From sequence record MK962758: a DNA stretch of 64,000 nt. One strand, written 5' to 3'. Source of the stretch: Shigella phage JK55. A model generated the notes under the pieces. That model had not been told where the DNA came from and ran no database searches. It saw only the letters and a program-made list of their open reading frames with translations. How positions within the stretch are numbered: position 1 is the first letter of the stretch; the number at the start of each line of letters is the position of its first letter. Positions 6,906 to 27,979 of the stretch are shown here, in pieces. The translations under genes and the position numbers were made by a program.

Positions 6906-7691
6906 ATGGGTATTGTAAAAATCATCAATGGCGATATCTTTGCCGCATTTGATAAAGGTAAGTTTGACATCATTGGTCACGGTTGCAACTGTATGAATTT
7001 AATGGGTGCAGGTATCGCTGACAAGATTTCTAAACTTTACCCAAAAGCATATGAGACCGATACAGAAGTTTATCTATATGCAGGTGGTATAGGTCACAAA
7101 CCCTGTGAGAATTTACTAGGTAATTTCTCTGTAGCACGCTTAAAACAAGGTCGTATAGCTAACCTTTACACTCAGCTTAAGACTGGTAAAGATGCACGAT
7201 ACAGTGTTTTAGAGTCATCTTTGAAACAGCTTAACAGATACTGTGAAGTTAATCAGTTGAAGAAAGTTGGTTTACCTATGATTGGTGCAGGTATCGGTGG
7301 GCTGGACCCTCAAGCTGTCACAGTTATCATCAATCAGGTGATGAAGAGTGTAGATGTTTATCTGTATGTCTATGAAGGCGAGATGTACCACAAGTTACGC
7401 TCAGGTTGGAAGAACTACTGTGAACCAGAATACTTTGCAGGTGTAGCAGTGTTCACGGATAACGCAGTTACCCTCTTCAGACGAAGAAAAGGTAAGATAC
7501 ATCAAAGTAACCCTCCGGTTGAAAAGATGTCTCTAGGTAATGCTCTAGTTACCCACCTGTCGAAGAGCAATCACAGAATGGCTGTGACATTTGGTAGTGA
7601 TGCAGAAGCTTATATCTATGCAAGAACTGATGAGGATATCGAGGCAATCTTCTCTTCACCAGAAGTTACCTTCTTAGACGCAAAGAACTAA
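6906..7691 (+). CDS. macro-domain protein, TARG1/OARD1/DarG-like (ADP-ribose processing)
   Basis: N-terminal 160 aa show GDIF...HGCNCxNLMGAGIA...LPMIGAGIGGL...VYLYVY, matching the TARG1-type macro-domain pattern (GDLF, MGAGIA, MPRIGCGLDRL); about 100 aa of C-terminal extension unassigned. Confidence 0.55.
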   Translation: MGIVKIINGDIFAAFDKGKFDIIGHGCNCMNLMGAGIADKISKLYPKAYETDTEVYLYAGGIGHKPCENLLGNFSVARLKQGRIANLYTQLKTGKDARYSVLESSLKQLNRYCEVNQLKKVGLPMIGAGIGGLDPQAVTVIINQVMKSVDVYLYVYEGEMYHKLRSGWKNYCEPEYFAGVAVFTDNAVTLFRRRKGKIHQSNPPVEKMSLGNALVTHLSKSNHRMAVTFGSDAEAYIYARTDEDIEAIFSSPEVTFLDAKN

Positions 7692-7760
7692 GAAACTCTG
7701 TAGAATATTCACAATAGACTAAGCCTTTCTTATCTGGTAAATTTTTCAGGTAAGGAGGGC

Positions 7761-7943
7761 TTTTTCATTTCAGGATTGTGCAGGTATATTTCTATAGAGA
7801 AATCTGTAGAGAAAATTTTGAACTCCAAAGAGAAAATTCATTTTCAAACTGTGCAGGTAATCTCCAAAGGGCTTTTTCATTTTCAAAACGTGCAGACCCC
7901 GCTCAGGTCGGGCAAGAAAAATCATTTTAGAATTGTGCAGGTA
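7761..7943 (+). repeat. four direct copies of about 22-bp motif TTCATTT(T)CAnnA..GTGCAGGTA in intergenic region
   Basis: Copies near 7765-7786, 7838-7860, 7876-7896, 7922-7943; a fifth partial copy follows the terminator at 5380-5394. Confidence 0.6.
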
Positions 7944-7967
7944 GGTTTTTATAGAGAGCCAGACCAA

Positions 7968-7998
7968 CCCCTCTCCCCCTCTTACTCCCCCTCTCCCC
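7968..7998 (-). other. G-quadruplex-forming motif on minus strand (GGGG-AGA-GGGGG-AGTAAGA-GGGGG-AGA-GGGG); C-rich i-motif strand on plus
   Basis: Plus strand reads CCCCTCTCCCCCTCTTACTCCCCCTCTCCCC; four C/G tracts of 4-5 with loops of 3, 7, 3 nt in an otherwise AT-rich intergenic region. Confidence 0.6.
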
Positions 7999-8119
7999 AA
8001 AAGTCAAGAGAAAAATTTGTAGCGGATTGAAAAATAATTCTTGATTTGTGTTCTGTTTTGTGGTAGTCGTGTGCGCCCGTTTCATTACAGTTTTGCCAAA
8101 GATATTTTTAAAATTTTTC

Positions 8120-8179
8120 TTGACTCTTTGAACGGGGTTATCTAGTATTTGCATCAACGGGGAGGGAATGACCTTCCCC
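8120..8179 (+). promoter_or_regulatory. type-A early cassette: promoter (TTGACT-17-TAGTAT) plus 5'UTR hairpin GGGGAGGGAATGACCTTCCCC and GGAG RBS
   Basis: -35 at 8120-8125, -10 at 8143-8148, hairpin 8159-8179, conserved tail ACTAAATAAAGTCCTAAACTGGAGATTCAAAAATG to start 8212. Confidence 0.6.
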
Positions 8180-8211
8180 ACTAAATAAAGTCCTAAACTG
8201 GAGATTCAAAA

Positions 8212-8592
8212 ATGAAATATCGTGCGCCTAAATTCATCAACAAAGACAACTTTCGTAGCGTACTGGAGAAGTCACTTGATGAAAATTTCAAAGGTAATGT
8301 GATTGTTGTTCACTCGTTCAATTTTAAGTATGATATCAACGGGAATAAAATCAACCATTACACGGCAACCATGTTAGATGGCACTCTTTCAAGTGAAAAA
8401 ACAATTCTACATGCACTTGCTGGGCGTGGAAAAAACCTGATAAGATGCGATAAGAGACGTTATCAGGGTGGCGCATATGGTTACGATGACGCTATTTATC
8501 ATCTTGAAAATATGGGCTATCAAGTAGAAAAAGCTGGAGTATCACAAATCATCGGGAGCGATGGTTATGTAACAATCTTCAAAATTAACTGA
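8212..8592 (+). CDS. hypothetical small early protein
   Basis: ORF directly behind type-A cassette with GGAG RBS 8 nt upstream. Confidence 0.6.
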   Translation: MKYRAPKFINKDNFRSVLEKSLDENFKGNVIVVHSFNFKYDINGNKINHYTATMLDGTLSSEKTILHALAGRGKNLIRCDKRRYQGGAYGYDDAIYHLENMGYQVEKAGVSQIIGSDGYVTIFKIN

Positions 8593-8600
8593 TAAAGTAC

Positions 8601-8636
8601 TTTACAAGGGGCTTATAGTTCGATAAAGTAAGCCCC
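8601..8636 (+). promoter_or_regulatory. type-B early cassette: TTTACA-17-TAAAGT promoter-like element overlapping hairpin GGGGCTTA...TAAGCCCC
   Basis: -35-like TTTACA 8601-8606, -10-like TAAAGT 8624-8629, 8-bp stem hairpin 8608-8636, then AGATAAAGAGCTTTACCACT..GGAGA..ATG. Confidence 0.5.
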
Positions 8637-8681
8637 AGATAAAGAGCTTTACCACTCAATCCTAAATTGGAGAACTAAAAA

Positions 8682-8939
8682 ATGGCTATTATCAAAAACG
8701 TTGTAGTTACTGCAAAGACTCGCGATGACGCTCGCATTATGGCTAAAAAGTTATGCGGAAAAGTGGTTGACAACGGAAAACAATCTGCTGTAAGATGGGG
8801 CGTAAAGGCTGATAAACAACTAACCTTAAAACGCAGTTCAAACAACCTTTTTAAAGGTGTAAAATCACTCGGTAAAGTGAACGTCTTTACCAAAAAAGGC
8901 TATAAAATGCACTTATCATTAACTGGCAATTTAATCTGA
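8682..8939 (+). CDS. hypothetical small early protein (basic, 85 aa)
   Basis: ORF behind type-B cassette. Confidence 0.55.
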   Translation: MAIIKNVVVTAKTRDDARIMAKKLCGKVVDNGKQSAVRWGVKADKQLTLKRSSNNLFKGVKSLGKVNVFTKKGYKMHLSLTGNLI

Positions 8940-8947
8940 TAAAGTAC

Positions 8948-8983
8948 TTTACAGGGGGCTTAAAAGTTGATATCTTAAGCCCC
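8948..8983 (+). promoter_or_regulatory. type-B early cassette (TTTACA-17-TATCTT; hairpin GGGGCTTAA...TTAAGCCCC)
   Basis: Same architecture as 8601-8636 with 9-bp stem. Confidence 0.5.
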
Positions 8984-9027
8984 AGATAAAGAGCTTTACC
9001 ACTAAATCCTAAACTGGAGATTCAAAA

Positions 9028-9540
9028 ATGAAAACTGTAGACGCTACCTTTGAAGTTGTAAAAGAAAAATTCACCATTATTTATGAAGCTGTCAATTGCT
9101 TTGAAGCAAGCCATAATCTCGATAATTGGGAGTTTACAAACGACCATCAAGGCGGTGTGACTGTTAAAAATCCTAACTGTCAGCATAATGATTTTAAATA
9201 TGCAATCCCTTTGCATTACAGCCTTAAACAGCTTTCAAGTGACTATGCAAAACAAGGCCGCGATAATCCATCGAAAGAGGCTTACACGAGCTTACAGAAA
9301 GAACTAGAAAGAGATTTAGAGGCTTCAGAGTATAACCTTGCCGCGAAAGTTGTGGATGCAAACGGTAACACGGTTTTAGAAAGTTTTTATCTTGGTTATG
9401 CTTTCGATTGGTGCTATCGTGACGGCGATGATTTAGAGGATAGACTAAAAGAAGAGGTGAACAACGCAGACGCAGAATCTGAAGTATTAGAACGTTTGGA
9501 ATCATTGAAAGACTCAGTGATGAATATCTTTAAGAACTAA
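9028..9540 (+). CDS. hypothetical early protein (170 aa, acidic C-terminus)
   Basis: ORF behind type-B cassette. Confidence 0.55.
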   Translation: MKTVDATFEVVKEKFTIIYEAVNCFEASHNLDNWEFTNDHQGGVTVKNPNCQHNDFKYAIPLHYSLKQLSSDYAKQGRDNPSKEAYTSLQKELERDLEASEYNLAAKVVDANGNTVLESFYLGYAFDWCYRDGDDLEDRLKEEVNNADAESEVLERLESLKDSVMNIFKN

Positions 9541-9550
9541 ATAGATTTCT

Positions 9551-9590
9551 TTACACGGGGTTATCAAGCTGGTAGGATAGCCCCAGATAA
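9551..9590 (+). promoter_or_regulatory. type-B-variant early cassette (TTTACA-17-TAGGAT; hairpin GGGGTTATC...ATAGCCCC)
   Basis: Variant hairpin sequence but same positions relative to ATG at 9633. Confidence 0.4.
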
Positions 9591-9632
9591 ATAGATTTAT
9601 CAAATAAAGCCCTTAAACTAGGAGATTCTAAA

Positions 9633-9929
9633 ATGAAATTATCAAATCAAGTGCGTGAAAATTTGAGCAAATTACTCAACAAAATTGATTTCATTGAAAC
9701 ATCAAGGAATAGTCATGATGTTATGGAATGGTTACACGGCAAAATAAAAGGTCGTCGTGTAGTGATTTGCTTATGGAATAGTTGCAGGGAGTATAAAAAA
9801 CCTGTATTGCAAGTCAATATTTACGATGATACTTTTAAAAGCCCTGTAAAGTCTAAAAGCGATTTATTAGAATCTTATGAGATAACTGTAAGTGGCAAAG
9901 TATCACGTAAAGAGGAAACACCATGTTAA
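9633..9929 (+). CDS. hypothetical small early protein
   Basis: ORF behind cassette; 3' end overlaps next ORF. Confidence 0.5.
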   Translation: MKLSNQVRENLSKLLNKIDFIETSRNSHDVMEWLHGKIKGRRVVICLWNSCREYKKPVLQVNIYDDTFKSPVKSKSDLLESYEITVSGKVSRKEETPC

Positions 9930-10255
9930 TGACTGGTATCACTGCAATCATTGCCATTTTCGCGCTATATAAGGCATATAAAGCCTATAATCTAGCAAAT
10001 AAGGCAATCACACAGCAGGTTAGCAATAACCTTGTAGAAAGCTTTCTAGGACGTCTCAGTGATGAGCAAATAAAGCGGCTAGAGATGAGCTTCAGATATA
10101 AAGCGAAAACCTATCAGATAAGTGACATCTTCAAAGATGATTTTCAGCTTGTCGATGATTATAATGCTCTGATAAATGCTTTAAATATCAGTGACTTAAA
10201 AGACTACTACGCTGTAATTGTTCAAGAACTGAGCAAACGAAAAAATTCCTCTTGA
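9923..10255 (+). CDS. hypothetical small membrane protein (N-terminal TM helix)
   Basis: Hydrophobic segment LMTGITAIIAIFALY; start overlaps previous gene; no own cassette. Confidence 0.45.
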   Translation: MLMTGITAIIAIFALYKAYKAYNLANKAITQQVSNNLVESFLGRLSDEQIKRLEMSFRYKAKTYQISDIFKDDFQLVDDYNALINALNISDLKDYYAVIVQELSKRKNSS

Positions 10256-10310
10256 TTTTGGTTTTTAAAGCAAGTAAATTACTAATCAACGGGGAGGAAA
10301 TGACCTCCCC
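10252..10310 (+). promoter_or_regulatory. type-A early cassette (TTGATT-17-TAAATT; hairpin GGGGAGGAAATGACCTCCCC)
   Basis: -35 10252-10257, -10 10275-10280, hairpin 10291-10310 with compensatory stem change relative to other copies. Confidence 0.55.
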
Positions 10311-10343
10311 ACTACATAAAACCCTTAAACTAGGAGATTCAAA

Positions 10344-10616
10344 ATGTATACTACTAACAACGGTCGCACCTTAAACGTAACCCTGCGCCACTATGTGAAC
10401 GGTGTAATGCACTTCGAGGATTTACAAGCCGAACAACATATTCTGAATTGGCAACTTGCAGGGCTGCAAAAAACTGCTACAGGATACGGTAAAAAGATTC
10501 CAACTAGTTGGAAAGTATACTACGAAGGCCGTTTGCGTAGAATTTATCAAGATGTACACAGCAATAGCGCAACAAGTTACATCATGGTAAAAGGTAAAAA
10601 GCTGCATTTAGTATAA
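10344..10616 (+). CDS. hypothetical small early protein
   Basis: ORF behind type-A cassette. Confidence 0.55.
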   Translation: MYTTNNGRTLNVTLRHYVNGVMHFEDLQAEQHILNWQLAGLQKTATGYGKKIPTSWKVYYEGRLRRIYQDVHSNSATSYIMVKGKKLHLV

Positions 10617-10621
10617 AGTAC

Positions 10622-10657
10622 TTTACAAGGGGCTTATAGTTCGATAAAGTAAGCCCC
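10622..10657 (+). promoter_or_regulatory. type-B early cassette (identical hairpin to 8608-8636)
   Basis: AAGTACTTTACAAGGGGCTTATAGTTCGATAAAGTAAGCCCCAGATAAAGAGC repeated. Confidence 0.5.
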
Positions 10658-10702
10658 AGATAAAGAGCTTTACCACTAAATCCTAAATTGGAGAACTTAA
10701 AA

Positions 10703-11107
10703 ATGGCTATTAATAACCGTGAATTATCAATTTTAAAAGCACGTTTGACCGTTAACCGGATTAATGTCATCACGTCATCAGCACCAGATGAAACACTGCA
10801 AAACATTATTGGGAAGATTCAAAGTGTTATCTTAGACGTTGAAAGCGTAAAAAATTCATTGGCTGACGTTGCAGCAGGTATCACACTAGACGGTGCGCAA
10901 TATGAAATGTCCGACATGTTAGGCAAATCTAAGGTAATGAATAAAGAGTTAGATTTGAAAATGTTCCGATTTGCTGTTAAAGTGTGGCTATCTGTCGAGT
11001 ATGATGCTAACTTTGCAATCGCTGACTTTTTCGCCACTTGGTTGCAGCGTAATTTGACTAATCATGACTTCCGCGATATCTGTGATGCAATTTATGCAGA
11101 ACTCTAA
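10703..11107 (+). CDS. hypothetical early protein
   Basis: Start chosen at ATG 10703 (conserved GGAGAACTTAAAAATG context) rather than the track ATG at 10688, which lies within the RBS region. Confidence 0.5.
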   Translation: MAINNRELSILKARLTVNRINVITSSAPDETLQNIIGKIQSVILDVESVKNSLADVAAGITLDGAQYEMSDMLGKSKVMNKELDLKMFRFAVKVWLSVEYDANFAIADFFATWLQRNLTNHDFRDICDAIYAEL

Positions 11108-11116
11108 AAAATTTTG

Positions 11117-11176
11117 TTGACACTGGTTTTTAGATAGATTAAATTACACATCAACGGGGAGGGAATGACCTTCCCC
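11117..11176 (+). promoter_or_regulatory. type-A early cassette (TTGACA-17-TAAATT; hairpin GGGGAGGGAATGACCTTCCCC)
   Basis: -35 11117-11122, -10 11140-11145, hairpin 11156-11176. Confidence 0.6.
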
Positions 11177-11208
11177 ACTAAATAAAGTCCTAAACTGGAG
11201 ATTCAAAA

Positions 11209-11412
11209 ATGGCTATTATTAATGGTTTAACCATTGAAACTACACACATCAAAGATATCAAAGTTGGTGATATAGTCCTTTCCCACGGCGTAGAAAAAAC
11301 TGTCACTGCAAAGGATATCAAAGAGGATTCTTTCATGGGTAGGACTCTCTTCGGTGATTCTTATTGCTTAGGCTATCTTGCAGTTTTAAAAGTTGTCAAA
11401 AATAACAAATAA
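11209..11412 (+). CDS. hypothetical small early protein (67 aa)
   Basis: ORF behind type-A cassette. Confidence 0.5.
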   Translation: MAIINGLTIETTHIKDIKVGDIVLSHGVEKTVTAKDIKEDSFMGRTLFGDSYCLGYLAVLKVVKNNK

Positions 11413-11416
11413 AGTA

Positions 11417-11452
11417 CTTTACAAGGGGCTTAAAAGTTGATAACTTAAGCCT
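11417..11452 (+). promoter_or_regulatory. type-B early cassette (hairpin GGGGCTTAA...TTAAGCCTC)
   Basis: Same architecture; one stem mismatch. Confidence 0.45.
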
Positions 11453-11497
11453 CAGATAAAGAGCTTTACCACTAAATCCTAAACTGGAGATTCAAAA

Positions 11498-12040
11498 ATG
11501 AAATGTTTTCACGGAACTACTCAAGAAAATTTCCTCAACCTGATTAATAACGGTGATAAACCATCAGGCGCATGGAATTGTTCGGATATGGACGGCAATT
11601 TTTACGTGTATCCAGAAAATAAAATCTATGGCGACGATGAGGAAGAGATAACATCAGAAGGCATCCAGCAAGCTCTAGGCAATGCCACTATCACCGCAGC
11701 TTTTCAGATGAAGACTCAAAATATTGTTATCTTAGAACTCGATATTCCAGAGGATGAGCTGAATGACGATTATTATTGTGATAATATGTCGAGTGTAGCA
11801 AGTTTTACAGAGTACTTTGATGTAAATTGGATTAAAAAGGTCTATACAACAGAGTTTAACGCTATGTATTCACCTTTTTGTCTTCCTTCATTGGATAACC
11901 CAAATTTAAACTATCTTGATGAGTCTCTGGAGCTTCTTGCTAAAAGTGTTCAACAGTCGGACAGTATTCAGGTTTTTTGTGACATCATGGACACGCTGAC
12001 AGGAAACATCACAGAAGAGGATTTAAAGAGCTTTTTCTAA
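11498..12040 (+). CDS. hypothetical early protein (180 aa, acidic)
   Basis: ORF behind type-B cassette. Confidence 0.55.
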   Translation: MKCFHGTTQENFLNLINNGDKPSGAWNCSDMDGNFYVYPENKIYGDDEEEITSEGIQQALGNATITAAFQMKTQNIVILELDIPEDELNDDYYCDNMSSVASFTEYFDVNWIKKVYTTEFNAMYSPFCLPSLDNPNLNYLDESLELLAKSVQQSDSIQVFCDIMDTLTGNITEEDLKSFF

Positions 12041-12072
12041 AAACCTACACAATCACCTTATAAACACTGATT

Positions 12073-12093
12073 AGCCCCTTGTAGGGGCTTTTA
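12073..12093 (+). terminator. rho-independent terminator (AGCCCCT-TGT-AGGGGCT + TTTT)
   Basis: 7-bp GC-rich stem, short loop, T-run. Confidence 0.6.
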
Positions 12094-12106
12094 GAGGGCT
12101 TAAATC

Positions 12107-12340
12107 ATGCTAACAACCGTTTATCTCATCCTCTCAATTTGTAATGGCCATTCATGTGACTTTAAAGGGCTTGAAGAGTTTACAGGGAGTAAAGAAAATG
12201 CTATTCAAGTTTGCCAGATAGCAAGGCAAGACTATCCCGCCAGTGATGATATACAATGCTACTTTAAGACAGAAGATGAAGAAGGAATCTATTTCGACAG
12301 CGTTGATGGTCAATATGAAATTATCATTGAAAAAGACTAG
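12107..12340 (+). CDS. hypothetical small protein (77 aa)
   Basis: ORF with AGAGGG RBS; the only gene in the array without a cassette. Confidence 0.45.
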   Translation: MLTTVYLILSICNGHSCDFKGLEEFTGSKENAIQVCQIARQDYPASDDIQCYFKTEDEEGIYFDSVDGQYEIIIEKD

Positions 12341-12397
12341 ACAAGCCTGATAAAAGTCTGTAAATTGTCAATCAACGGGGAGGGAATGACCTTCCCC
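12338..12397 (+). promoter_or_regulatory. type-A early cassette (TAGACA-17-TAAATT; hairpin)
   Basis: -35 12338-12343, -10 12361-12366, hairpin 12377-12397. Confidence 0.55.
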
Positions 12398-12432
12398 ACT
12401 AAATAAAGTCCTTAAACTAGGAGATTCCAAAA

Positions 12433-12774
12433 ATGGCTTATGTAACCGTAATTACCGATAAAGCTGGCGCATCTTGGTCAACTCAGGTTAGTGATAAGAT
12501 GTCGCCTATGCAGTGCCTAAAATACTTTGAACAGTGGAACAAAGGCGAGGACACAAGCCCCTTTCAAGTGATGCAGATTATCCATGTAGACAACGAAGGG
12601 AAGAAAACAACTCTGAATAGTGAGTACTATGCAAGCCGTTTTGAAACGAGAAGTAAAACAATGAAGCTTCTACGTGAATCCGGTTATACCCATATCGCCG
12701 CGTTAATCTGGGATGACCTTCTAAAAAGTCAACGTATCAGCTATGTAAAGCCTGAAAAAATATTCATCAGTTAA
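12433..12774 (+). CDS. hypothetical early protein (113 aa)
   Basis: ORF behind type-A cassette. Confidence 0.55.
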   Translation: MAYVTVITDKAGASWSTQVSDKMSPMQCLKYFEQWNKGEDTSPFQVMQIIHVDNEGKKTTLNSEYYASRFETRSKTMKLLRESGYTHIAALIWDDLLKSQRISYVKPEKIFIS

Positions 12775-12903
12775 TCAATAACTTACAAAAAACTTTTAAA
12801 AAAGTGTTGACAATACCCCTTGACATTGGTAACTTTGTTCGAGGGGGTTTATCTAAAAGGGATTCACTTAAAAGATTCTTTATAGATAAGCTTAAAAAAT
12901 TGC

Positions 12904-12960
12904 TTGCAATCAGCTATCAAAACAAGTAAATTACTAATCAACGGGAGGGATAACCTCCCC
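12904..12960 (+). promoter_or_regulatory. type-A early cassette (TTGCAA-17-TAAATT; hairpin GGGAGGGATAACCTCCC)
   Basis: -35 12904-12909, -10 12927-12932, hairpin 12943-12960 with covarying stem. Confidence 0.5.
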
Positions 12961-12993
12961 ACTAAATAAAATCCTTAAACTAGGAGAGTCAAA

Positions 12994-13524
12994 ATGAACA
13001 AGTTTAAAGCTATCAACTTCATTCGTTCAAATGCTGTAATGTCAAAACCTGTAAAAGACACATACGAATTTCGCTGCAATGGGGTACACTTTGCAACCAT
13101 CACTAAGTCAGAAAACGGGGCTTATTACATTCATCGCCGTAATGTTTCTACTGTTGTAGTCTCTCACTTTATGCAAGCTGTAGCGGAATTATTACCGTTA
13201 TTCTTAGAGATTTACTTAGATGAGTGCAAAAACGTTCGTAACCACGTTAAAAACCTTTTAAACGGTTATAAAATGGCTTATGAACGTTCTATCAAGTCCT
13301 TAAACAAGTTTTATAAAGCCCCTGTAAATACTGTTTCAATGGCTTACAGTGTAAGCGGTGAGTTGGTTAGCCTCTTCGAAGTAGAAGAAATTGAACTATA
13401 TGACTCACGTCCTAGCGGTTACTCTAAGACACTGGGAGAAGGTTTATCTTTCAATATCAAGAACTTAGAAAAAACTTTAAAAGATATTGAAAAAGATATT
13501 GACGAAACAATCAAAAGTCTGTAA
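12994..13524 (+). CDS. hypothetical early protein (176 aa)
   Basis: ORF behind type-A cassette. Confidence 0.55.
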   Translation: MNKFKAINFIRSNAVMSKPVKDTYEFRCNGVHFATITKSENGAYYIHRRNVSTVVVSHFMQAVAELLPLFLEIYLDECKNVRNHVKNLLNGYKMAYERSIKSLNKFYKAPVNTVSMAYSVSGELVSLFEVEEIELYDSRPSGYSKTLGEGLSFNIKNLEKTLKDIEKDIDETIKSL

Positions 13525-13558
13525 ATTGTCAATCAACGGGGAGGGAATGACCTTCCCC
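13499..13558 (+). promoter_or_regulatory. type-A early cassette (TTGACG-17-TAAATT; hairpin); promoter lies inside 3' end of upstream gene
   Basis: -35 13499-13504, -10 13522-13527, hairpin 13538-13558. Confidence 0.55.
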
Positions 13559-13603
13559 GCTAAACAAAACCCTTAATCAACTTCCTAAACTGGAGATTCT
13601 AAA

Positions 13604-13852
13604 ATGGCTACTATCCGCGCAACTGTTAACGAATTTGGCTTCTACTCTCTGGACGTTAAATTTGACCTTGTAGGTACTGATAACGCCTTTGAAATGGTGA
13701 AAGGCCTTATCAGCCAGACCATCAGTGACTACAACCCCTCTGATGAATTCTGGAAAGAAACAAAACAAGAAGCCCTTAAAGATGGTTACACTTATCACTA
13801 TTGGGGCGAAAAAATTGTCTCCCTGTACTACGACAAAAAAGGCACTAACTAA
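13604..13852 (+). CDS. hypothetical small early protein (82 aa)
   Basis: ORF behind type-A cassette; last gene before the non-coding region. Confidence 0.55.
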   Translation: MATIRATVNEFGFYSLDVKFDLVGTDNAFEMVKGLISQTISDYNPSDEFWKETKQEALKDGYTYHYWGEKIVSLYYDKKGTN

Positions 13853-13890
13853 ACGCCGCAACGGGGCTAAATAGCCCCAGATACCTTTAC

Positions 13891-13941
13891 AGCCCCTTTC
13901 CCATATAGATTCGATAGAGTCTATCTCATAGGGGCTTTTTT
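13891..13941 (+). terminator. terminator-like hairpin (AGCCCCT...AGGGGCT + TTTTT) closing the plus-strand early array
   Basis: 7-bp stem with long structured loop then TTTTT; preceded by smaller hairpin GGGGCTAAATAGCCCC at 13864-13879. Confidence 0.5.
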
Positions 13942-14288
13942 ACGTCTTATCAAATCCCTTATACAACCCTTTCCCTTTCCTTTCCAGAATCTTATCAGAC
14001 CTTAAAAGCAATAACTCTATAGCTTACTCTATAGCCTTTTATTAAATCAACTTAAATATAAGCCCATAACCCGAAAGGGAAGGGCAACCATTTAAACGCT
14101 CTATAAAGCCCTATAACGGCCTTATTAACCTAACTTAAGGGATTGCATTACCTCACCCTTAAAAGCCCTTTATAAAGCTTCCCAGAGCCTTAAAAGAATC
14201 TTATAAGGGTATAAGCTTTATTATCTCGTTAGCTATCTTGTGAATAACTAAAAAGGGCTTGTTAGTGTCTTAAAAGTATGTTATAGGG

Positions 14289-14347
14289 GCTTAAAAGTTA
14301 CTTTGAAGTAGCTTAAAAGTTACTTTGAAGTAGCTTAAAAGTTACGT
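14289..14347. repeat. short tandem repeat, about 2.6 copies of 22-bp unit GCTTAAAAGTTACTTTGAAGTA
   Basis: Read directly: ...GGGGCTTAAAAGTTACTTTGAAGTAGCTTAAAAGTTACTTTGAAGTAGCTTAAAAGTTACG. Confidence 0.8.
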
Positions 14348-14389
14348 AAATGCTAGCCCCCTTAACAATTTCTTAACAATCCCTACATA

Positions 14390-15051
14390 GTTATGCTTTT
14401 AAGGCACTTGTTAGCAACTTGTTAGCCCCTTGTTAAATCTCTGTTAAGACCACGTAAAAGCCTTGTAAGAGTCTTTGACATAGCCTTTAAAGCTTCTGTA
14501 AAGCCTTATAAAAAGGTGTCTGTATAGTTGGGCTGTAGATACTAGGAAGAGACTTAAAAGAGCTTACAAGGAGCTATAGAGAGCTTTTAAGAGGGCTATT
14601 TAGAGATTCACTAGGGATTGGTAACAATACCAATTAAGAGGGAAAGGGAACGATAAGAAAAGAGTAGTGACCATGTTAACAACTTGTTAAAAAGATTAAA
14701 CACTTGTTAGGAACTTGTTAATTATCTTAACAAAATAACTCTTAACATTTAACTACTTAGCTCTTGTTAGTCATCTGTTAAGATTCTGTAAAGCCTATTC
14801 AGCAACTGTTAAGATTCTGTTACATCCTTGTTAGTTCTGTTAAGAATCTGTTAAGGCCTTTGAAGATTTGTTAAGAGCTTGAGAGAGTTGTTAAGAGATT
14901 GTTAAGGATATTTTAAAATTTTGCAAAGTACTTGTAAGGGAGTTGTTAAGGGCTACCAAGCAGATATACATCCTAATCAGATATTTTTCAGTTCCTTCAA
15001 AGACCCTAAAAAATGACTTGATAGCTCTATTTTATAAAAATTTTAAGATTC
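14390..15051. repeat. 662-bp tandem direct repeat, copy 1 (iteron-rich)
   Basis: Sequence from 14390 repeats at offset 662; all line-by-line spot checks identical. Confidence 0.85.
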
Positions 15052-15713
15052 GTTATGCTTTTAAGGCACTTGTTAGCAACTTGTTAGCCCCTTGTTAAAT
15101 CTCTGTTAAGACCACGTAAAAGCCTTGTAAGAGTCTTTGACATAGCCTTTAAAGCTTCTGTAAAGCCTTATAAAAAGGTGTCTGTATAGTTGGGCTGTAG
15201 ATACTAGGAAGAGACTTAAAAGAGCTTACAAGGAGCTATAGAGAGCTTTTAAGAGGGCTATTTAGAGATTCACTAGGGATTGGTAACAATACCAATTAAG
15301 AGGGAAAGGGAACGATAAGAAAAGAGTAGTGACCATGTTAACAACTTGTTAAAAAGATTAAACACTTGTTAGGAACTTGTTAATTATCTTAACAAAATAA
15401 CTCTTAACATTTAACTACTTAGCTCTTGTTAGTCATCTGTTAAGATTCTGTAAAGCCTATTCAGCAACTGTTAAGATTCTGTTACATCCTTGTTAGTTCT
15501 GTTAAGAATCTGTTAAGGCCTTTGAAGATTTGTTAAGAGCTTGAGAGAGTTGTTAAGAGATTGTTAAGGATATTTTAAAATTTTGCAAAGTACTTGTAAG
15601 GGAGTTGTTAAGGGCTACCAAGCAGATATACATCCTAATCAGATATTTTTCAGTTCCTTCAAAGACCCTAAAAAATGACTTGATAGCTCTATTTTATAAA
15701 AATTTTAAGATTC
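15052..15713. repeat. 662-bp tandem direct repeat, copy 2
   Basis: Identical to 14390-15051 in every segment compared. Confidence 0.85.
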
Positions 15714-16218
15714 TGAATAATTACCTATACAGTCTTTTAAAAATACAGGTAGAAACAGGCTTATAAGATACCTTGTTAGTACCGTGTTAGACCTTGTGAG
15801 ATAAGGTCTGTAAAGATATTCCTGTTAAGTTTGTTAAAACAGTCTATATAGAGGCTTAGTAATACCTAGTGAACACCTATAGAGAGTATCATAGCTAACC
15901 TAGAGATTAAGAGGTGTATAGGAGCTTCTAAGAGGGTGTAGAGAGATGGTTAAGGTGATTGTATAGGTTGTTAAGAAGGCTTGTTAGAAGAGTGTTTAGA
16001 AGGCTTGTTAGAGGGTTATTTAGAAGGGCTATACAGATGGGCTATTAAGACCACTAGATAGTTACTAAGATACTATATAGTACTATATAACTATATAGAG
16101 AGTAAGATTAAGAAGGTTGTTAAGAAGGATAGATATTTTGTTCACATATGATGGTGACCCAGAGGTTGGGACAACCGATAAAATTTTATAAAAAATATAA
16201 ATTTCGTAAATTTTACTC

Positions 16219-16249
16219 AATAAAAAGCCCCCAATTAAGGAGGCTCTTA
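16219..16249 (-). terminator. rho-independent terminator for minus-strand block
   Basis: On minus strand: GAGCCTCCTTAATTGGGGGCTTTTTATT (stem plus U-run) just after the stop of 16257..16850. Confidence 0.5.
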
Positions 16250-16256
16250 AGATATT

Positions 16257-16850
16257 TTAAATCAATGTTTCCAGAACTGTTTTTAGGGATGACTTAGTTG
16301 TCTGATAAAAATGAGTGAATCCGTTGTTGTTATCGAATATCTGCATCATGATATCATCTCCCTTGATTGGGTATACTCGGATATCATAGTGAAACCCGTT
16401 AAAGACAGCAGAACCATTACAGAACACACTAAAATCGTCCACTGAGATATACTCTTCATGTCCTGTGATTTTTATACAGACGCCTTTGCTCGGTCTCTTA
16501 GGGTTGATATCTTCCATCACAGACATACTCTGTCCACCAAGAGATACCATAGTGACCACTTTACGGTTCTTCTGTCTAAAGTACATTTTAACTTTCTGTA
16601 AAGTGTCTTCATAGAACGGATAAGACTTCTCTACAAAGATTCCTTCAAGTGGCTCTTTACCATTTTCAACTTCTCTGGTATGTCGTACTGCAAAGATAAT
16701 TTGTTGGAACCAGTCAAGATTTTCTTCGGAGAGTGCTTCACGAACATCACTCCAGTCAAGGACTAGGTAGTTACCTTCAACTTCTTTTAAGTTATCTTTT
16801 TCCATAGCTATCACACCATTATCGTAAAACTTGGTAGGCTGGTACTGCAA
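16257..16850 (-). CDS. hypothetical protein
   Basis: ORF in co-directional minus-strand block. Confidence 0.5.
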   Translation of the reverse strand: MQYQPTKFYDNGVIAMEKDNLKEVEGNYLVLDWSDVREALSEENLDWFQQIIFAVRHTREVENGKEPLEGIFVEKSYPFYEDTLQKVKMYFRQKNRKVVTMVSLGGQSMSVMEDINPKRPSKGVCIKITGHEEYISVDDFSVFCNGSAVFNGFHYDIRVYPIKGDDIMMQIFDNNNGFTHFYQTTKSSLKTVLETLI

Positions 16851-17283
16851 ACTTGTTGCTGTTGTGCTTAATAAGGTCTTCTTCTGTTACTAAGAATGTA
16901 ATCCCACATAAGTGCGTATAGTGGCTGTCATACTCAAATATTTTAAGTAAGTATTTACCATCATGATAGACAGATTCTACTACACCTTTTGCAACAATCT
17001 TTCCAGTCTTGAAATCTTTAAGAGGGTATGTATTACCGACTCTAGGGACTGTTTTCATCTCAGGCTCTTTTAGCTTATCACCAGCTTCTACATCACCTAG
17101 CAAGTGAGAACTTTCAAAAGCTACATATTGCATATAAGCCTCTGAGCATTCCCAGATAAAACAATGTACAAGAGCCTTAGCAGCATGTCTTGAACAATTC
17201 AACTTATCACAAATCTCTTTGTACATTTCATCTTTAGTTGAGTTGTCAAGCATTGCTTTTTGAACGACTTCTTTAATTTTCAT
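16819..17283 (-). CDS. hypothetical protein
   Basis: ORF; overlaps neighbour by about 30 nt so true start may be internal. Confidence 0.45.
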   Translation of the reverse strand: MKIKEVVQKAMLDNSTKDEMYKEICDKLNCSRHAAKALVHCFIWECSEAYMQYVAFESSHLLGDVEAGDKLKEPEMKTVPRVGNTYPLKDFKTGKIVAKGVVESVYHDGKYLLKIFEYDSHYTHLCGITFLVTEEDLIKHNSNKFAVPAYQVLR

Positions 17284-25489: not shown

Positions 25490-25566
25490 CTCTGTTTAGC
25501 TCAGCTTGGTAGAGCGTTCCGTTTGGGGCGGTAAGGCCGGAGGTTCAAGTCCTCCAACAGAGACCA
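25490..25566 (+). tRNA. tRNA-Pro (anticodon TGG)
   Basis: Hand-folded cloverleaf: 7-bp acceptor CTCTGTT/AACAGAG, D-arm GCTC..GAGC, anticodon loop TTTGGGG, T-arm GGAGGTTCAAGTCCTCC, CCA encoded. Confidence 0.7.
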
Positions 25567-25573
25567 AATTAAT

Positions 25574-25651
25574 GTTCCAGTAGACAAAATGGTATAGTCA
25601 CCACTCTTTCAAAGTGGATATCTGAGGGTTCAAATCCCTTCTGGAACGCCA
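25574..25651 (+). tRNA. tRNA-Glu (anticodon TTC)
   Basis: Acceptor GTTCCAG/CTGGAAC, anticodon stem CCACT/AGTGG with loop CTTTCAA, T-arm GAGGGTTCAAATCCCTT, CCA encoded. Confidence 0.6.
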
Positions 25652-25738
25652 GTTTTGACAGAAGACCAATTACAGCAAACTGAATCTACTCATCTGACAC
25701 GAAATCGGACAAAGAAGATATTTGGTCTGGTCATTAAG
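25652..25738 (+). ncRNA. repeated structured element, copy a (ACAGAAGACCAATTACAGCAA ... TTGGTCTGG)
   Basis: Shares 5' motif and covarying closing stem with copies b, c, d. Confidence 0.4.
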
Positions 25739-25741
25739 AAT

Positions 25742-25818
25742 TGCGGGTATAGAGAAAGGGCGTCTCACATGTCTCATTAGCATGGTATCGGCAGGTTCGA
25801 CTCCTGCACCCGCCTCCA
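25742..25818 (+). tRNA. tRNA-Met or Ile2 (anticodon CAT)
   Basis: Anticodon loop CTCATTA, T-arm GCAGGTTCGACTCCTGC, acceptor about 6/7 bp, CCA encoded. Confidence 0.55.
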
Positions 25819-25819
25819 A

Positions 25820-25892
25820 ATTTACAGAAGACCGTTTACAGCAATACTTATTAAATTTTTAGCGGAAAAATTGAAAGATGCGGTCTGGTAAT
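25820..25892 (+). ncRNA. repeated structured element, copy b (ACAGAAGACCGTTTACAGCAA ... CGGTCTGG)
   Basis: As above; closing stem AGACCG/CGGTCT. Confidence 0.4.
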
Positions 25893-25901
25893 ACTAAACA
25901 T

Positions 25902-25975
25902 GGTTAGGAAGCACATAAGGTATGTGCGGTCGCCTGTTAAGCGAATGGCACAGGGTTCGAATCCCTGACTAACCG
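25902..25975 (+). tRNA. tRNA-Asn (anticodon GTT)
   Basis: D-arm GCAC..GTGC, anticodon loop CTGTTAA, T-arm CAGGGTTCGAATCCCTG; no CCA encoded. Confidence 0.55.
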
Positions 25976-25986
25976 CAAAATTTAAA

Positions 25987-26075
25987 TGTGTCGTTATCCC
26001 GTAGATGGTAGCGGTGGGGACTGTAAATCCCTTGTCATTGAGACTCGGTAGGTTCGACTCCTACACGGCACACCA
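25987..26075 (+). tRNA. tRNA-Tyr (anticodon GTA), long variable arm
   Basis: Anticodon loop CTGTAAA, about 15-nt variable arm, T-arm GTAGGTTCGACTCCTAC, CCA encoded. Confidence 0.6.
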
Positions 26076-26080
26076 ATAAA

Positions 26081-26158
26081 GGTTATGTAGTTTAATTTGG
26101 TTAAAATACTCCCCTGTCACGGGAGATGATGAGGGTTCAAATCCCTTCGTAACCGCCA
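26081..26158 (+). tRNA. tRNA-Asp (anticodon GTC)
   Basis: Anticodon stem CTCCC/GGGAG with loop CTGTCAC, T-arm GAGGGTTCAAATCCCTT, CCA encoded. Confidence 0.6.
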
Positions 26159-26216
26159 ATTTTGAGAGGGCTATTTAGCCCCTCCCTTAAAGAGTTCTTA
26201 CGAGTATTCTTTAAAG

Positions 26217-26296
26217 GAGTAGAAGACCAAATACAGCAAGAATGTATGATATTTTCAAGCCAATTCAATTTTGAAAAAATTTAAAACTTGGTCTGG
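26217..26296 (+). ncRNA. repeated structured element, copy c (AGAAGACCAAATACAGCAA ... TTGGTCTGG)
   Basis: As above; closing stem AGACCAA/TTGGTCT. Confidence 0.4.
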
Positions 26297-26306
26297 CTCA
26301 ACAAAT

Positions 26307-26450
26307 TTACAGAAGACCGTTTACAGCAAAACTTAAACAATCTATTTCTCGGTAAAGAAAAGGCGAAGGTTCGATTCCTTCACTCGGCAGAGGTCGAGTT
26401 GGTGTAATGGTAGCACTTAAGATGATAAACAACGGTCTGGTAATTATCTT
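26307..26450 (+). ncRNA. repeated structured element, copy d, expanded; contains tRNA-like T-arm (GAAGGTTCGATTCCTTC) and D-arm-like segment
   Basis: Closing stem AGACCGTT/AACGGTCT; internal T-loop motif and TGGTGTAATGGTAGCAC D-arm-like segment, but no complete cloverleaf found. Confidence 0.35.
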
Positions 26451-26585
26451 TGTAGATAAGTTATTAAGCTTACCTGTGAGTATGCGACCACAAAGGGTGA
26501 AAGGGTAAATTCTAGATTTAAACCCAAAAAGTCACATCGCTACAGACCTTAAGCAAGTCTGGGTAGCTTATCTACAAAGATAATT
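26441..26585 (+). repeat. 19-bp perfect inverted repeat (TAATTATCTTTGTAGATAAG / CTTATCTACAAAGATAATT) enclosing 105 bp
   Basis: Arms at 26441-26460 and 26566-26584; candidate RNase III-type processing stem or miniature inverted-repeat element. Confidence 0.6.
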
Positions 26586-26589
26586 TAAT

Positions 26590-26665
26590 GGAAGTGTAGC
26601 AGAATGGTGATGCGGCAGACTTTTAATCTGACAGGCGATGGGTTCGAATCCCTCCACTTCTACCA
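26590..26665 (+). tRNA. tRNA-Lys (anticodon TTT)
   Basis: Acceptor GGAAGTG/CACTTCT, anticodon loop CTTTTAA, T-loop TTCGAAT with weak T-stem, CCA encoded. Confidence 0.5.
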
Positions 26666-26669
26666 AAAT

Positions 26670-26746
26670 GGTTCAGTCGCAGATAAGGTAATGCAAGGGT
26701 CTCATAAGCCCTATGAATGTGGGTTCGAATCCCATCTGAACCTCCA
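26670..26746 (+). tRNA. tRNA-Met or Ile2 (anticodon CAT), second copy
   Basis: Acceptor GGTTCAG/CTGAACC, anticodon stem AGGGT/GCCCT loop CTCATAA, T-arm GTGGGTTCGAATCCCAT, CCA encoded. Confidence 0.6.
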
Positions 26747-26748
26747 AT

Positions 26749-26823
26749 TGTGGGTTAGCATAAATGGTAATGCAAACGGCTGATAACCGTTAGAAGAGGG
26801 TTCGATACCCTCACCTACAACCA
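26749..26823 (+). tRNA. tRNA-Ile (anticodon GAT)
   Basis: Anticodon stem AACGG/CCGTT loop CTGATAA, T-arm GAGGGTTCGATACCCTC, CCA encoded. Confidence 0.6.
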
Positions 26824-26838
26824 AATTCAATAAAGTTG

Positions 26839-26867
26839 TTGACATTGAGATGTGACTACTTTATAGT
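26839..26867 (+). promoter_or_regulatory. sigma70-like promoter inside tRNA cluster (TTGACA-17-TATAGT)
   Basis: -35 26839-26844, -10 26862-26867; about 200 nt of non-tRNA sequence follows before the next tRNA. Confidence 0.55.
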
Positions 26868-27070
26868 ACCCTTAGTTTTCGTTGCGTAGCGTCTATTTTG
26901 CAAATTTAAAATAAATGCAAACGACAATGTTTTTCTGGCAGTAGCTTGATAGGCTAAACACCAGTGAGGTCTTCCAATCCCTCATCAAAGAATTTGGCGT
27001 ACTCGCCCACGGTATGATTAATAAGGTGGGCATCTTTAAGGGCTTTCTAAGAGAGTCTTTAAAGATTAAT

Positions 27071-27147
27071 GCACCCTTAGTTCAACTGGACAGAGCAAAT
27101 GACTTCTAATCATTGAGTTACAGGTTCGAATCCTGTAGGGTGCGCCA
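27071..27147 (+). tRNA. tRNA-Arg (anticodon TCT)
   Basis: Acceptor GCACCCT/AGGGTGC, anticodon stem AATGA/TCATT loop CTTCTAA, T-arm ACAGGTTCGAATCCTGT, CCA encoded. Confidence 0.65.
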
Positions 27148-27289
27148 ATTAGTTAGCAGATTACTTAGACGACCTAAGCGGGTCTTCCTGTAGGGAGGTG
27201 GTCTGTATCTCATGTTTTCCAGAACATGTAAATAATCTGAGAAGGGGCTTTACAGTGTTGAGATAATACGGTAAGTTTCGAATTATAGT

Positions 27290-27372
27290 ATGGGACGATG
27301 TTAAGACTCTAAGGCATGAGCAACGGCCTCCAAAACCGTTTCAAAGGGGTTCAACTCCTCCGTCCCATGCCA
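27290..27372 (+). tRNA. atypical tRNA-like gene (possible anticodon CCA in an enlarged 9-nt loop; isotype unresolved)
   Basis: Perfect acceptor ATGGGAC/GTCCCAT, T-arm AGGGGTTCAACTCCTCC, CCA encoded, but 83 nt long with about 7 extra nt between acceptor and anticodon arm; stem AACGG/CCGTT encloses CCTCCAAAA. Confidence 0.35.
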
Positions 27373-27385
27373 AAGTCTTATTAGT

Positions 27386-27473
27386 GGTAGGTAGCGGCTA
27401 ATGGTAGCCAAACTGTCTTGAAAACAGTTGCCACTGTAGAGATACGGTGAGGGTTCGACTCCTTTACTTACCG
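27386..27473 (+). tRNA. tRNA-Ser (anticodon TGA), long variable arm
   Basis: Anticodon stem ACTGT/ACAGT loop CTTGAAA, long variable arm, T-arm GAGGGTTCGACTCCTTT; no CCA encoded. Confidence 0.55.
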
Positions 27474-27730
27474 CCTAATAAGATTTAAAGCCAAGCTTCA
27501 TTCGGATGTTGCTTTGGTATCCCTCGTGTATTGTCGTACACACTAATAAAGCACCTAGTAGGTGTCACGGAGAAGAGATAATATCAAGCTCTCCAAAGGT
27601 TCTAGTCACCGGATTAAACAAGACTATGCAAAGACCTTTTTAGGTCTTTTTAGAGGGCTTCTAAGGTTATTACAGCTTGTTGTGGAACCTTGTTGCTTAG
27701 GTTCTTAGAAGTTCTCTAAAAAGGTTTAAT

Positions 27731-27808
27731 GGGAGATTGACGGTAATTGGTAAACCTATCTCGCTTAGAACGAGATGTTTGAGGGTTCGAATCCCTTGTC
27801 TCCTACCA
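27731..27808 (+). tRNA. tRNA with anticodon TAG (Leu by code) but short variable arm
   Basis: Anticodon stem TCTCG/CGAGA loop CTTAGAA, T-arm GAGGGTTCGAATCCCTT, CCA encoded; class-I length. Confidence 0.45.
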
Positions 27809-27815
27809 AATTAAT

Positions 27816-27891: not shown

Positions 27892-27897
27892 AACAAT

Positions 27898-27973: not shown

Positions 27974-27979
27974 ATTAGT

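Follow-up and report, generated by a model that had tools for sequence, protein, structure and literature searches.

In this study, we analysed a stretch of 64,000 nucleotides (the window) from Shigella phage JK55 (sequence record MK962758), and in particular an array of 13 small plus-strand open reading frames (ORFs; g1 to g13) that occupies positions 8212–13852. Eleven of the 13 genes have in front of them a repeated cassette that spans the DNA from the upstream stop codon to the ATG, and 11 of the 12 usable intergenic spaces consist of a member of one of two repeat families, here called type A (six copies) and type B (five copies). The array is made up of 11 modules that lie between two terminators. 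We consider it likely that it represents the flexible early-gene region of a Felix O1-like myovirus, in which 11 self-contained expression modules are exchanged at the cassettes. A preliminary description of this DNA had proposed a 13-gene array with two cassette families, and this is confirmed here, the core motifs having four to five matches each in the window and none in 100 shuffled sequences. The extent then given, 8120–13603, was right as to the region, but the array continues to 13852 and ends at a terminator near 13891–13942. Similarly, the statement that nearly every gene is led by a cassette stands for 11 of the 13 genes and fails for g5, which at 9923 overlaps the stop codon of g4, and for g10, which at 12107 follows a small T-run hairpin. 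The pairs g4–g5 and g9–g10 stay together in all relatives for which complete arrays were available (27 arrays).

Type A cassettes are built from a -35-like hexamer, a spacer of 17 bp, a -10 hexamer (TAAATT in five copies, TAGTAT in one), 10 nt, a hairpin and a leader. The hairpin is GGGGAGGG-AATGA-CCTTCCCC or a shorter variant, and the leader reads ACTAAATAAAGTCCT(T)AAACT(A)GGAGATTCAAAAATG. The 17-bp spacer and the start of the hairpin 10 nt past the -10 hexamer are constant in all six copies. In A2, A4 and A6 the gene upstream has its stop codon within the -35 or the -10 hexamer, and the last codons of that gene encode the A-tract. Type B cassettes consist of a stop codon, TTTACA, 17 bp, a TAnnnT hexamer, AGATAAAGAGCTTTACCACT and the common leader; one of the five copies is divergent. 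The hairpin, GGGGCTTA...TAAGCCCC, here covers the spacer and the -10 hexamer, and the upstream stop codon lies within TGATAAAGT or TAAAGT. The 17-bp spacer is thus found in all 11 cassettes of the window, as is a GGAG Shine–Dalgarno sequence (SD) 7–9 nt 5' of the ATG. A1 and A3 are identical over their last 63 nt, the pairs B1/B4 and B2/B5 are 97–98% identical, and B1 matches B4 at 98% despite unrelated flanking genes. The cassettes, with predicted transcription starts, are as follows.

8120–8214, plus strand: cassette A1; -35 TTGACT at 8120–8125, -10 TAGTAT at 8143–8148, hairpin at 8159–8179, SD GGAG at 8200–8203, ATG at 8212; predicted start near 8155–8157.
8590–8684, plus strand: cassette B1; TTTACA at 8601–8606, -10 TAAAGT at 8624–8629, SD at 8669–8672, ATG at 8682; inner hairpin GGGGCTTAT..GTAAGCCCC, outer stem of TAAAGTACTTTA paired with TAAAGAGCTTTA; predicted start 8636–8638.
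8937–9030, plus strand: cassette B2; TTTACA at 8948–8953, TG-extended -10 TATCTT at 8971–8976, ATG at 9028; predicted start 8983–8985.
9538–9635, plus strand: cassette B3, the divergent copy; TTTACA at 9550–9555, TG-extended -10 TAGGAT at 9573–9578, hairpin GGGGTTATC..GATAGCCCC, ATG at 9633; predicted start 9585–9587.
10252–10346, plus strand: cassette A2; -35 TTGATT at 10252–10257, which contains the g5 stop codon, -10 TAAATT at 10275–10280, hairpin GGGGAGG..CCTCCCC at 10291–10310, ATG at 10344; predicted start 10282–10289.
10614–10705, plus strand: cassette B4; TTTACA, -10 TAAAGT, ATG at 10703; predicted start 10657–10659.
11117–11211, plus strand: cassette A3; TTGACA at 11117–11122, TAAATT at 11140–11145, hairpin at 11156–11176, ATG at 11209; predicted start 11152–11154.
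11410–11500, plus strand: cassette B5; TTTACA at 11418–11423, TG-extended -10 TAACTT at 11441–11446, ATG at 11498; predicted start 11453–11455.
12338–12435, plus strand: cassette A4; -35 TAGACA at 12338–12343, which contains the g10 stop codon, TAAATT at 12361–12366, hairpin at 12377–12397, ATG at 12433; predicted start 12373–12375.
12904–12996, plus strand: cassette A5, preceded by a non-cassette spacer of about 130 nt; TTGCAA at 12904–12909, TAAATT at 12927–12932, hairpin GGGAGG..CCTCCC, ATG at 12994; predicted start 12939–12941.
13499–13606, plus strand: cassette A6; -35 TTGACG at 13499–13504, inside the end of g12, -10 TAAATT at 13522–13527, which contains the g12 stop codon, hairpin at 13538–13558, leader 13 nt longer than in the other copies, ATG at 13604; predicted start 13534–13536.

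The cassettes are restricted to the array. A search of the 64 kb for the leader motif CCT(T)AAAYT(A)GGAG gave exactly 11 hits, each on the plus strand and each inside a cassette, and nhmmer found no further cassettes elsewhere in the window or in positions 58000–86252 (the remaining 28 kb) of the close relative HY02. An Rfam scan of 7000–17000 gave no match at E <= 1. For comparison, arrays were collected from about 35 related phages, yielding 133 distinct type A and 153 distinct type B copies; all of them, like the window, belong to the Ounavirinae (Felixounavirus, Mooglevirus and Kolesnikvirus). Gene-presence counts rest on the 27 complete arrays, in which loci carry L0xx names and extra genes x-numbers. 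In this set the leader has two forms, CCT...TGGAG (159 copies) and CCTT...TAGGAG (119 copies), with 278 concordant and two discordant distinct copies, and both forms are found in both cassette types, for example at 8192–8203 and 10322–10336. The linkage fits a mini-hairpin that pairs with the Shine–Dalgarno site; simple linkage over 6 nt would account for it just as well.

The genes between the cassettes and the boundaries of the array are listed here, as they are needed to follow the comparison among relatives.

7721–7771, plus strand: strong intrinsic terminator after the upstream macro-domain gene, a 17-bp stem followed by a T-run; counterpart of Felix O1 t13 (PMC3185647, Table 2).
8212–8592, plus strand: g1, 126 amino acids (aa); in 25 of 27 arrays.
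8682–8939, plus strand: g2, 85 aa, basic; missing in L022.
9028–9540, plus strand: g3, 170 aa, acidic, variable; in 21 of 27 arrays.
9633–10255, plus strand: two-gene module of g4 (98 aa) and g5 (110 aa, with an N-terminal hydrophobic helix), stop and start overlapping.
10344–10616, plus strand: g6, 90 aa; in all 27 arrays.
10703–11107, plus strand: g7, 134 aa.
11209–11412, plus strand: g8, 67 aa, variable; in 19 of 27 arrays.
11498–12340, plus strand: two-gene module of g9 (180 aa) and g10 (77 aa).
12073–12093, plus strand: small terminator-like hairpin with a T-run, between g9 and g10.
12433–12774, plus strand: g11, 113 aa.
12994–13524, plus strand: g12, 176 aa.
13604–13852, plus strand: g13, 82 aa.
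13863–13942, plus strand: array end, a type-B-like hairpin and then an intrinsic terminator.
13863–13878, plus strand: the promoter-less type-B-like hairpin, GGGGCTAAATAGCCCC followed by AGATA, between g13 and the terminator; it looks as if it were a truncated cassette closing the array.
13891–13942, plus strand: long-stem intrinsic terminator with a T6 run that closes the array; counterpart of Felix O1 t23 (PMC3185647).

The evidence that genes are exchanged at the cassettes comes from the relatives. The 13 proteins of the array are mutually unrelated (best pairwise match E = 0.49), and for about one-third of the cassette copies the nearest relative sits in a different slot. Among the 27 arrays g3 has been lost in five loci (L015, L023, L026, L031 and L036, where it is cleanly missing between B2 and B3), g2 in one and g8 in two (L018 and L019, between A3 and B5); the array of Felix O1 itself lacks g1–g2 and g8–g10. 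Gains are seen as well: 13 loci have x4, along with an additional type A cassette, inserted between g12 and g13, and x37 and x43 are single insertions that each brought an extra cassette. In some loci g3, g1 or g12 is replaced. In two close relatives x6 is found on opposite sides of g8: it precedes g8 and is led by a type A cassette in L016, and it follows g8 and is led by a type B cassette in L021. At every junction examined the single remaining cassette is chimeric, its 5' half being that of the upstream parent and its 3' half that of the downstream parent. The switch between parents falls variously in the shared core or in the leader, and such non-fixed crossover points fit homologous rather than site-specific exchange. 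We count at least 10 distinct events, and 57 of 60 breakpoints, which are pairwise and not independent events, fall in cassettes (18% of the span). Because breakpoint chaining was greedy, a few large 'events' (L003, L021 and L022) are artefactual and were read from gene maps instead. The module shuffling at cassettes that the preliminary description had foreseen is therefore seen as gain, loss, replacement and relocation, and the relatives do not simply repeat the same genes in the same order free of cassette-bounded change. The same design extends to another genus, as Erwinia phage phiEa21-4 has 17 small genes downstream of the same macro-domain gene and carries cassettes with TTTACA-17-TAGTAT over GGTGTTTATAC...GTATAAGCACC and a leader CAACCCTTAxAAAGGAATCAAAA; homologues of g3, g6, g4 and g12 are present there in a different order.

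The upstream terminator closes the preceding transcription unit, and the array therefore needs a promoter or promoters of its own; as it lies between two terminators, these must be internal. The conservation of the cassettes is informative in this respect. In the 133 type A copies the positions rich in information are T, T and G in the -35 hexamer and T, A and the last T in the -10 hexamer; the value is near zero in the 17-bp spacer and raised again over an A5–6 tract 5' of the -35 hexamer. In the 153 type B copies the loop bases around the -10 hexamer vary freely while its T, A and last T are fixed, and many variants with poorer -10 hexamers bear the TG of an extended -10. This profile is the pattern that would be expected of selection on sigma-70 recognition, and it suggests that the predicted promoters are used. 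In addition, the Felix O1 homologues of g3, g7, g11 and g12 have been reported by reverse transcription PCR to peak 5 min after infection (PMC3185647, Table 3).

The hairpins are conserved in a different manner in the two families. For type B, 94% of the cells are paired, and the covariation exceeds that of all 500 shuffles and of all slid controls. GC pairs of the stem become UA in the copies of the Erwinia phage, and at one position of the stem 30 distinct copies have C-G and another 30 have U·G. The U·G pairs occur on the sense strand only, which points to RNA as the form in which the hairpin is kept. On folding, the stem extends outwards in that TAAAGTACTTTA, which lies over the -35 hexamer, pairs with TAAAGAGCTTTA just past the -10 hexamer, and an interrupted helix of about 22 bp results (13 and 9 bp separated by a 3x3 internal loop). 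Within the outer stem a G-C pair is replaced by T-A in 19 distinct copies, and the partners that would have to change with them to keep the palindrome within each site do not, positions 9 and 53 remaining C in 153 of 153 and G in 151 of 153 copies. Since the -10 hexamer lies inside the structure, the full type B hairpin is possible only in RNA begun upstream. Type A hairpins form in all of 36 distinct variants folded, with free energies between -7.5 and -17.2 kcal/mol (typically about -15 kcal/mol), and folds of the sense strand exceed those of the antisense strand in stability by a mean of 1.6 kcal/mol. The stems of relatives differ in sequence (GGGC-AAGCAA-GCCC, GGGGC...GCCCC or GGGAA...TCCC) and lie at the same 10–11 nt from the -10 hexamer; on this comparison it is the position and the predicted structure of the type A hairpin that appear to be conserved, and not its sequence.

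From this we infer the actual transcription starts and the role of each hairpin. Each cassette would supply a stop codon for the upstream gene, a host sigma-70 promoter, a G/C-rich stem-loop and a leader with a GGAG site. The start site of type A is expected 7–8 nt past the -10 hexamer, which would place the hairpin 2–3 nt from the 5' end of the mRNA, where it would form a cap and most likely protect the transcript from 5'-end-dependent decay. The type B hairpin is predicted to form only in read-through RNA from upstream. The most likely function of its helix of about 22 bp is to attenuate read-through, or else to be cut or to remain as a 3' stabiliser; this would make the dosage of each gene independent of its neighbours. 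Homologous recombination from cassette to cassette would then delete, insert, replace or relocate genes with reading frames and expression signals intact, and whole genes would be moved because the same sequence of 60–100 bp recurs between unrelated genes.

A number of observations weigh against this explanation. A consensus promoter scan called 26 sites against 17.6 +/- 4.3 in shuffled sequences, which is not above chance. Several hexamers are weak, and of the sigma70-like -35 with 17-bp spacer claimed in the preliminary description the spacer stands without exception, while three of the -35 hexamers are weak. In the literature searched, no transcription-start, 3'-end, RNA-stability or RNA-seq data for Felixounavirus were found. 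Covariation in type A is weak, with 87% of the cells paired as against 80–81% when the partner is slid by one column, because runs of G and runs of C also pair in shifted registers; it was further blurred by the gap placement of MAFFT, and folding of each variant was used instead. The cassette hairpins all lack a U-tract on their 3' side, and none was called in the terminator scan. With respect to exchange, cassettes account for about 82% of the intergenic DNA in the array, and the excess of breakpoints in them is only mild when compared with the expectation that insertions and deletions must be intergenic. The clean chimeras and the presence of the same ORF under different cassette types are stronger evidence than the position of breakpoints. 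Finally, the array is largely syntenic, seven of its 13 genes being present in all 27 arrays, so that the term 'hyperplastic' overstates its variability; the array is in part conserved core and in part flexible.

The hairpins may be read in other ways. It has been reported that a stem-loop of the promoter-early-stem-loop elements (PeSLs) of phage phi1, when placed between a promoter and lacZ, cut expression about as much as the rrnB T1 terminator (PMC2839356), and the cassette hairpins are G/C-rich and intergenic. It is possible, though on balance we would not expect it, that the stem-loops are chiefly terminators or attenuators of read-through rather than stabilisers or processing sites, as the authors of the PeSL work proposed. 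The missing U-tracts speak against this, as the true terminators at the ends of the array and before g10 do have T-runs, and the fixed distance of 10 nt between the type A hairpin and the -10 hexamer is better explained if this hairpin acts at the 5' end of the transcript to which it belongs. Canonical intrinsic terminators were considered separately for the cassette hairpins and ruled out, since the T-runs that the flanking terminators have are absent. An insulating function of the stem-loops is compatible with the modular explanation that we prefer, and the two are not exclusive.

In a more restrictive scheme, A1 alone makes a long early transcript, and the cassettes are hairpins for RNA processing or stability, of the RNase III or RNase E type, which also carry a strong translation-initiation region, the internal 'promoters' being idle. 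The interrupted type B helix of about 22 bp with its 3x3 loop resembles the RNase III sites between the early genes of phage T7, it shows sense-strand G·U pairs and a compensatory change in the outer stem, A1 is the sole cassette directly downstream of a terminator, and several internal -35 hexamers are weak. We nevertheless regard this scheme as rather unlikely. The promoter-shaped conservation, that is, the free type A spacer, the fixed TTG and TAnnnT at 17 bp and the A-tract, would be unexplained by an element that acts in RNA only; the type B loop is fixed only at T and A of the -10 hexamer while their neighbours vary; and the type A -35 hexamer and A-tract are kept even where they are encoded inside the end of the upstream gene.

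A different route for the exchange itself can also be envisaged, in which the stem-loops are recognised as structures by a nuclease or recombination system of the phage, and units of an ORF plus cassette are excised, for example as circles, and re-inserted at other cassettes. One and the same ORF is found in more than one slot and under more than one type of cassette, Erwinia and Escherichia coli phages that differ in gene content and order have cassettes of homologous design, and structure is conserved while sequence drifts. If this were true, the array would be a promoter-carrying, integron-like gene-capture array common to the genera of Ounavirinae. We give this route little credence, as the crossovers are spread over any stretch that both cassettes share, which fits ordinary homologous recombination. 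Very improbable, too, is a reading in which the two TAAAG-N2-CTTTA palindromes that flank the type B hairpin, one over the -35 hexamer and one over the start, bind a dimeric regulator of phage or host origin that would switch the early promoters off. It is true that TAAAGTACTTTA is a perfect 12-bp palindrome, that TAAAGAGCTTTA is nearly one and that both are highly conserved; but the 19 copies with G to T in the 5' site and C to A in the 3' site keep the pairing between the sites and break both palindromes. This compensatory change favours an RNA stem, as judged from the alignment, over two protein operators, and the two-operator reading was rejected on the covariation. That the cassettes are passive leftovers of tandem duplication or of plain intergenic conservation, without a role in recombination, is hardly tenable: they are repeats in tandem orientation and the array is mostly syntenic among close relatives, but its 13 proteins share no similarity, near-identical cassettes flank unrelated genes, about a third of the copies are nearest to another slot, junctions are chimeric and the design persists across genera.

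The preliminary description had called the products small (67–180 aa) and unassignable, and this remains so. Pfam gave no match for the 13 array proteins and six extra proteins, NCBIfam none for 10 of the 13, and the PHROG matches of all 13 are to families of 'unknown function'. A profile search of the PDB with the g9 alignment returned nothing below E = 0.85. For the g9 homologue of Escherichia phage Bas63, Gp107, a 'slight structural homology' to the NAD-binding domain of RNA 2'-phosphotransferase has been noted, and this gene was more essential on E. coli S17-1 (preprint, PMC11482910); an ADP-ribosyltransferase fold of g9 is a weak lead and not an assignment. The predicted model of g12 is confident (predicted local distance difference test score, pLDDT, 92.3) and shows a small beta domain followed by a long helical hairpin, and its structural matches were uninformative. 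The Pfam identifier PF26821 is precomputed for g12 homologues (P0041–P0100) in the protein database. The label 'anti-defence island' has so far gained no support. There are no family matches behind it, and in a PhageMaP screen of Bas63 against 12 defence systems the validated counters were g77, g79, g80, g84, g85 and g130, none of which lies inside the Bas63 array, g98–g111 (PMC11482910). By analogy the label is plausible; we infer that the products are accessory factors for host takeover or counter-defence.

The window belongs to Felixounavirus and holds the usual Felix O1-type structural and replication blocks; the stretch singled out in the preliminary description corresponds to Felix O1 ORFs 14–23. 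The region 8000–14000 matches 257 phage records, the best of them, at about 92% identity, being Escherichia phages garuso, JohannRWettstein (Bas63) and warpig, all Felixounavirus. Upstream of the array lies a macro-domain 'phosphatase' gene (6906–7691; Pfam Macro) and downstream a non-coding region of about 2.4 kb. In loci L037 and L038 only the macro domain is shared (40% identity) and such an array is absent. One record titled Staphylococcus phage SA1 (GU169904.1) matches the array with 92% identity over 84% of the query; it therefore contains Felix O1-like sequence, probably as the result of a mixed or mis-assigned assembly.

Some further features were observed in and around the array. The g11–g12 spacer (12775–12903) consists of about 130 nt of non-cassette DNA, in which a promoter-like TTGACA-17-TAACTT begins at about 12808 and a C-run/G-run inverted repeat is present, and some relatives annotate a longer g12 that starts there; the spacer may be what is left of a lost module, or an additional promoter. 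The interval from the upstream terminator to the first promoter of the array (7765–7999) has four motifs of the CATTTT-N-TGTGCAGGT type followed by a polypyrimidine run, CCCCTCTCCCCCTCTTACTCCCCCTCTCCCC; a core, TTYAGRATTGTGCAG, is kept at that position in most relatives, and some records annotate short minus-strand ORFs in this region. Beyond the array, an ORF-free stretch of about 2.4 kb (13950–16250) is full of iterons of the TTGTTAAGA type with an 11-bp period and includes a perfect tandem duplication of 662 bp (14390–15051 and 15052–15713); this may be the junction of terminal repeats, or a region that serves replication or packaging. Elsewhere, the tRNA cluster at 25490–30323 has 25 genes, three more than the 22 listed for Felix O1.

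In the description of the Felix O1 genome it was stated that it is not known how transcription passes its many terminators, or with what timing (PMC3185647). The cassettes add 11 predicted host-type promoters that are missing from the list in that paper. They would also extend the principle of PeSLs, that one repeated cassette both expresses and shuffles accessory genes, to an unrelated subfamily of myoviruses, one that is widely used for the typing of Salmonella and E. coli, for biocontrol and in therapy. For phage engineering, for example of Bas63, the cassettes mark sites at which genes might be inserted or swapped without disturbing expression, and they delimit the variable early genes (g1–g3, g8, g12, x1, x4, x6, x7 and others) that could be screened for effects on host range or counter-defence.

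Parts of the cassettes have been seen before. The direct repeats reported for Felix O1 (Whichard et al. 2010, PMC3185647) include one of 57 bp, which is the type B core, and one of 39 bp, which is the promoter part of type A; only the repeats are given there, they are absent from the promoter list, and structure, a role in recombination and comparison with other phages are not treated. In the record of Citrobacter phage Mordin (KT363872.2), 14-bp 'repeat_region' features correspond to the leader just before each ribosome-binding site. We found no published interpretation of these repeats, and the papers on wV8, UAB_Phi87, rV5 and the comparison of Felixounavirus genomes contain no description of the cassettes.

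The closest known system is that of the PeSLs, known from the T4-type phage pairs phi1/RB49, PST/T4 and nt-1/KVP40 (Arbiol et al. 2010, PMC2839356; Comeau et al. 2014, PMC4122927). As described in phi1/RB49, a PeSL comprises a stop codon, an A/T-rich tract, sigma-70 boxes, a Shine–Dalgarno sequence and an ATG, with a poly-G/poly-C stem-loop at one of several positions relative to the promoter, and PeSLs lie before ORFans in hyperplastic regions and bound insertions and deletions (PMC2839356, section 13; PMC4122927). The likeness to T4-type modules seen in the preliminary description was well founded, as every sequence-testable feature of section 13 of PMC2839356 is present here: the composite element, which begins with the stop codon of the gene upstream, continues with an A/T-rich tract and sigma-70 hexamers and ends in the Shine–Dalgarno sequence and ATG; stem-loops of G-runs and C-runs with G·T pairs, placed between the -35 and -10 hexamers (type B) or just past the -10 hexamer (type A); the clustering before small genes of unknown function; and the element-bounded insertions, deletions and replacements between close relatives. 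There are also differences. The cassettes occur in Ounavirinae and not in the T4-like group, and they have no sequence homology to the T4-type elements; they are gathered in one terminator-bounded array of about 5.7 kb, whereas PeSLs number about 50 copies over several regions; and they form only two tight families with one common leader, the type B stem reaching about 22 bp. For PeSLs, promoter activity, terminator activity and mini-circles have been demonstrated; the promoters and hairpin functions of the cassettes are predicted. On this comparison the cassettes would work like PeSLs, in phages outside the host range described for them.

Three further systems resemble single aspects of the cassettes. 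A stem-loop near the 5' end protects E. coli mRNAs from 5'-end-dependent attack by RNase E, and the 5'-terminal stem-loop in the 5' untranslated region of ompA is said to be such an mRNA stabiliser (reportedly the work of Emory, Bouvet and Belasco in 1992); the type A hairpin, 2–3 nt from a predicted 5' end, would be placed in the same manner. In T7, RNase III processing hairpins without promoters lie between the early genes. The interrupted type B helix of about 22 bp also stands between consecutive early genes, and putative cleavage by RNase III would leave a 3' hairpin on the upstream mRNA, but unlike the T7 sites type B contains a promoter. Phage 'morons', the term reportedly being that of Hendrix and colleagues, are said to be inserted genes with a promoter and terminator of their own, and the modules of the array are similar to them as autonomous single-gene expression units between neighbouring genes. 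They differ in that here one repeated, common cassette is the control element and itself gives the homology for exchange.

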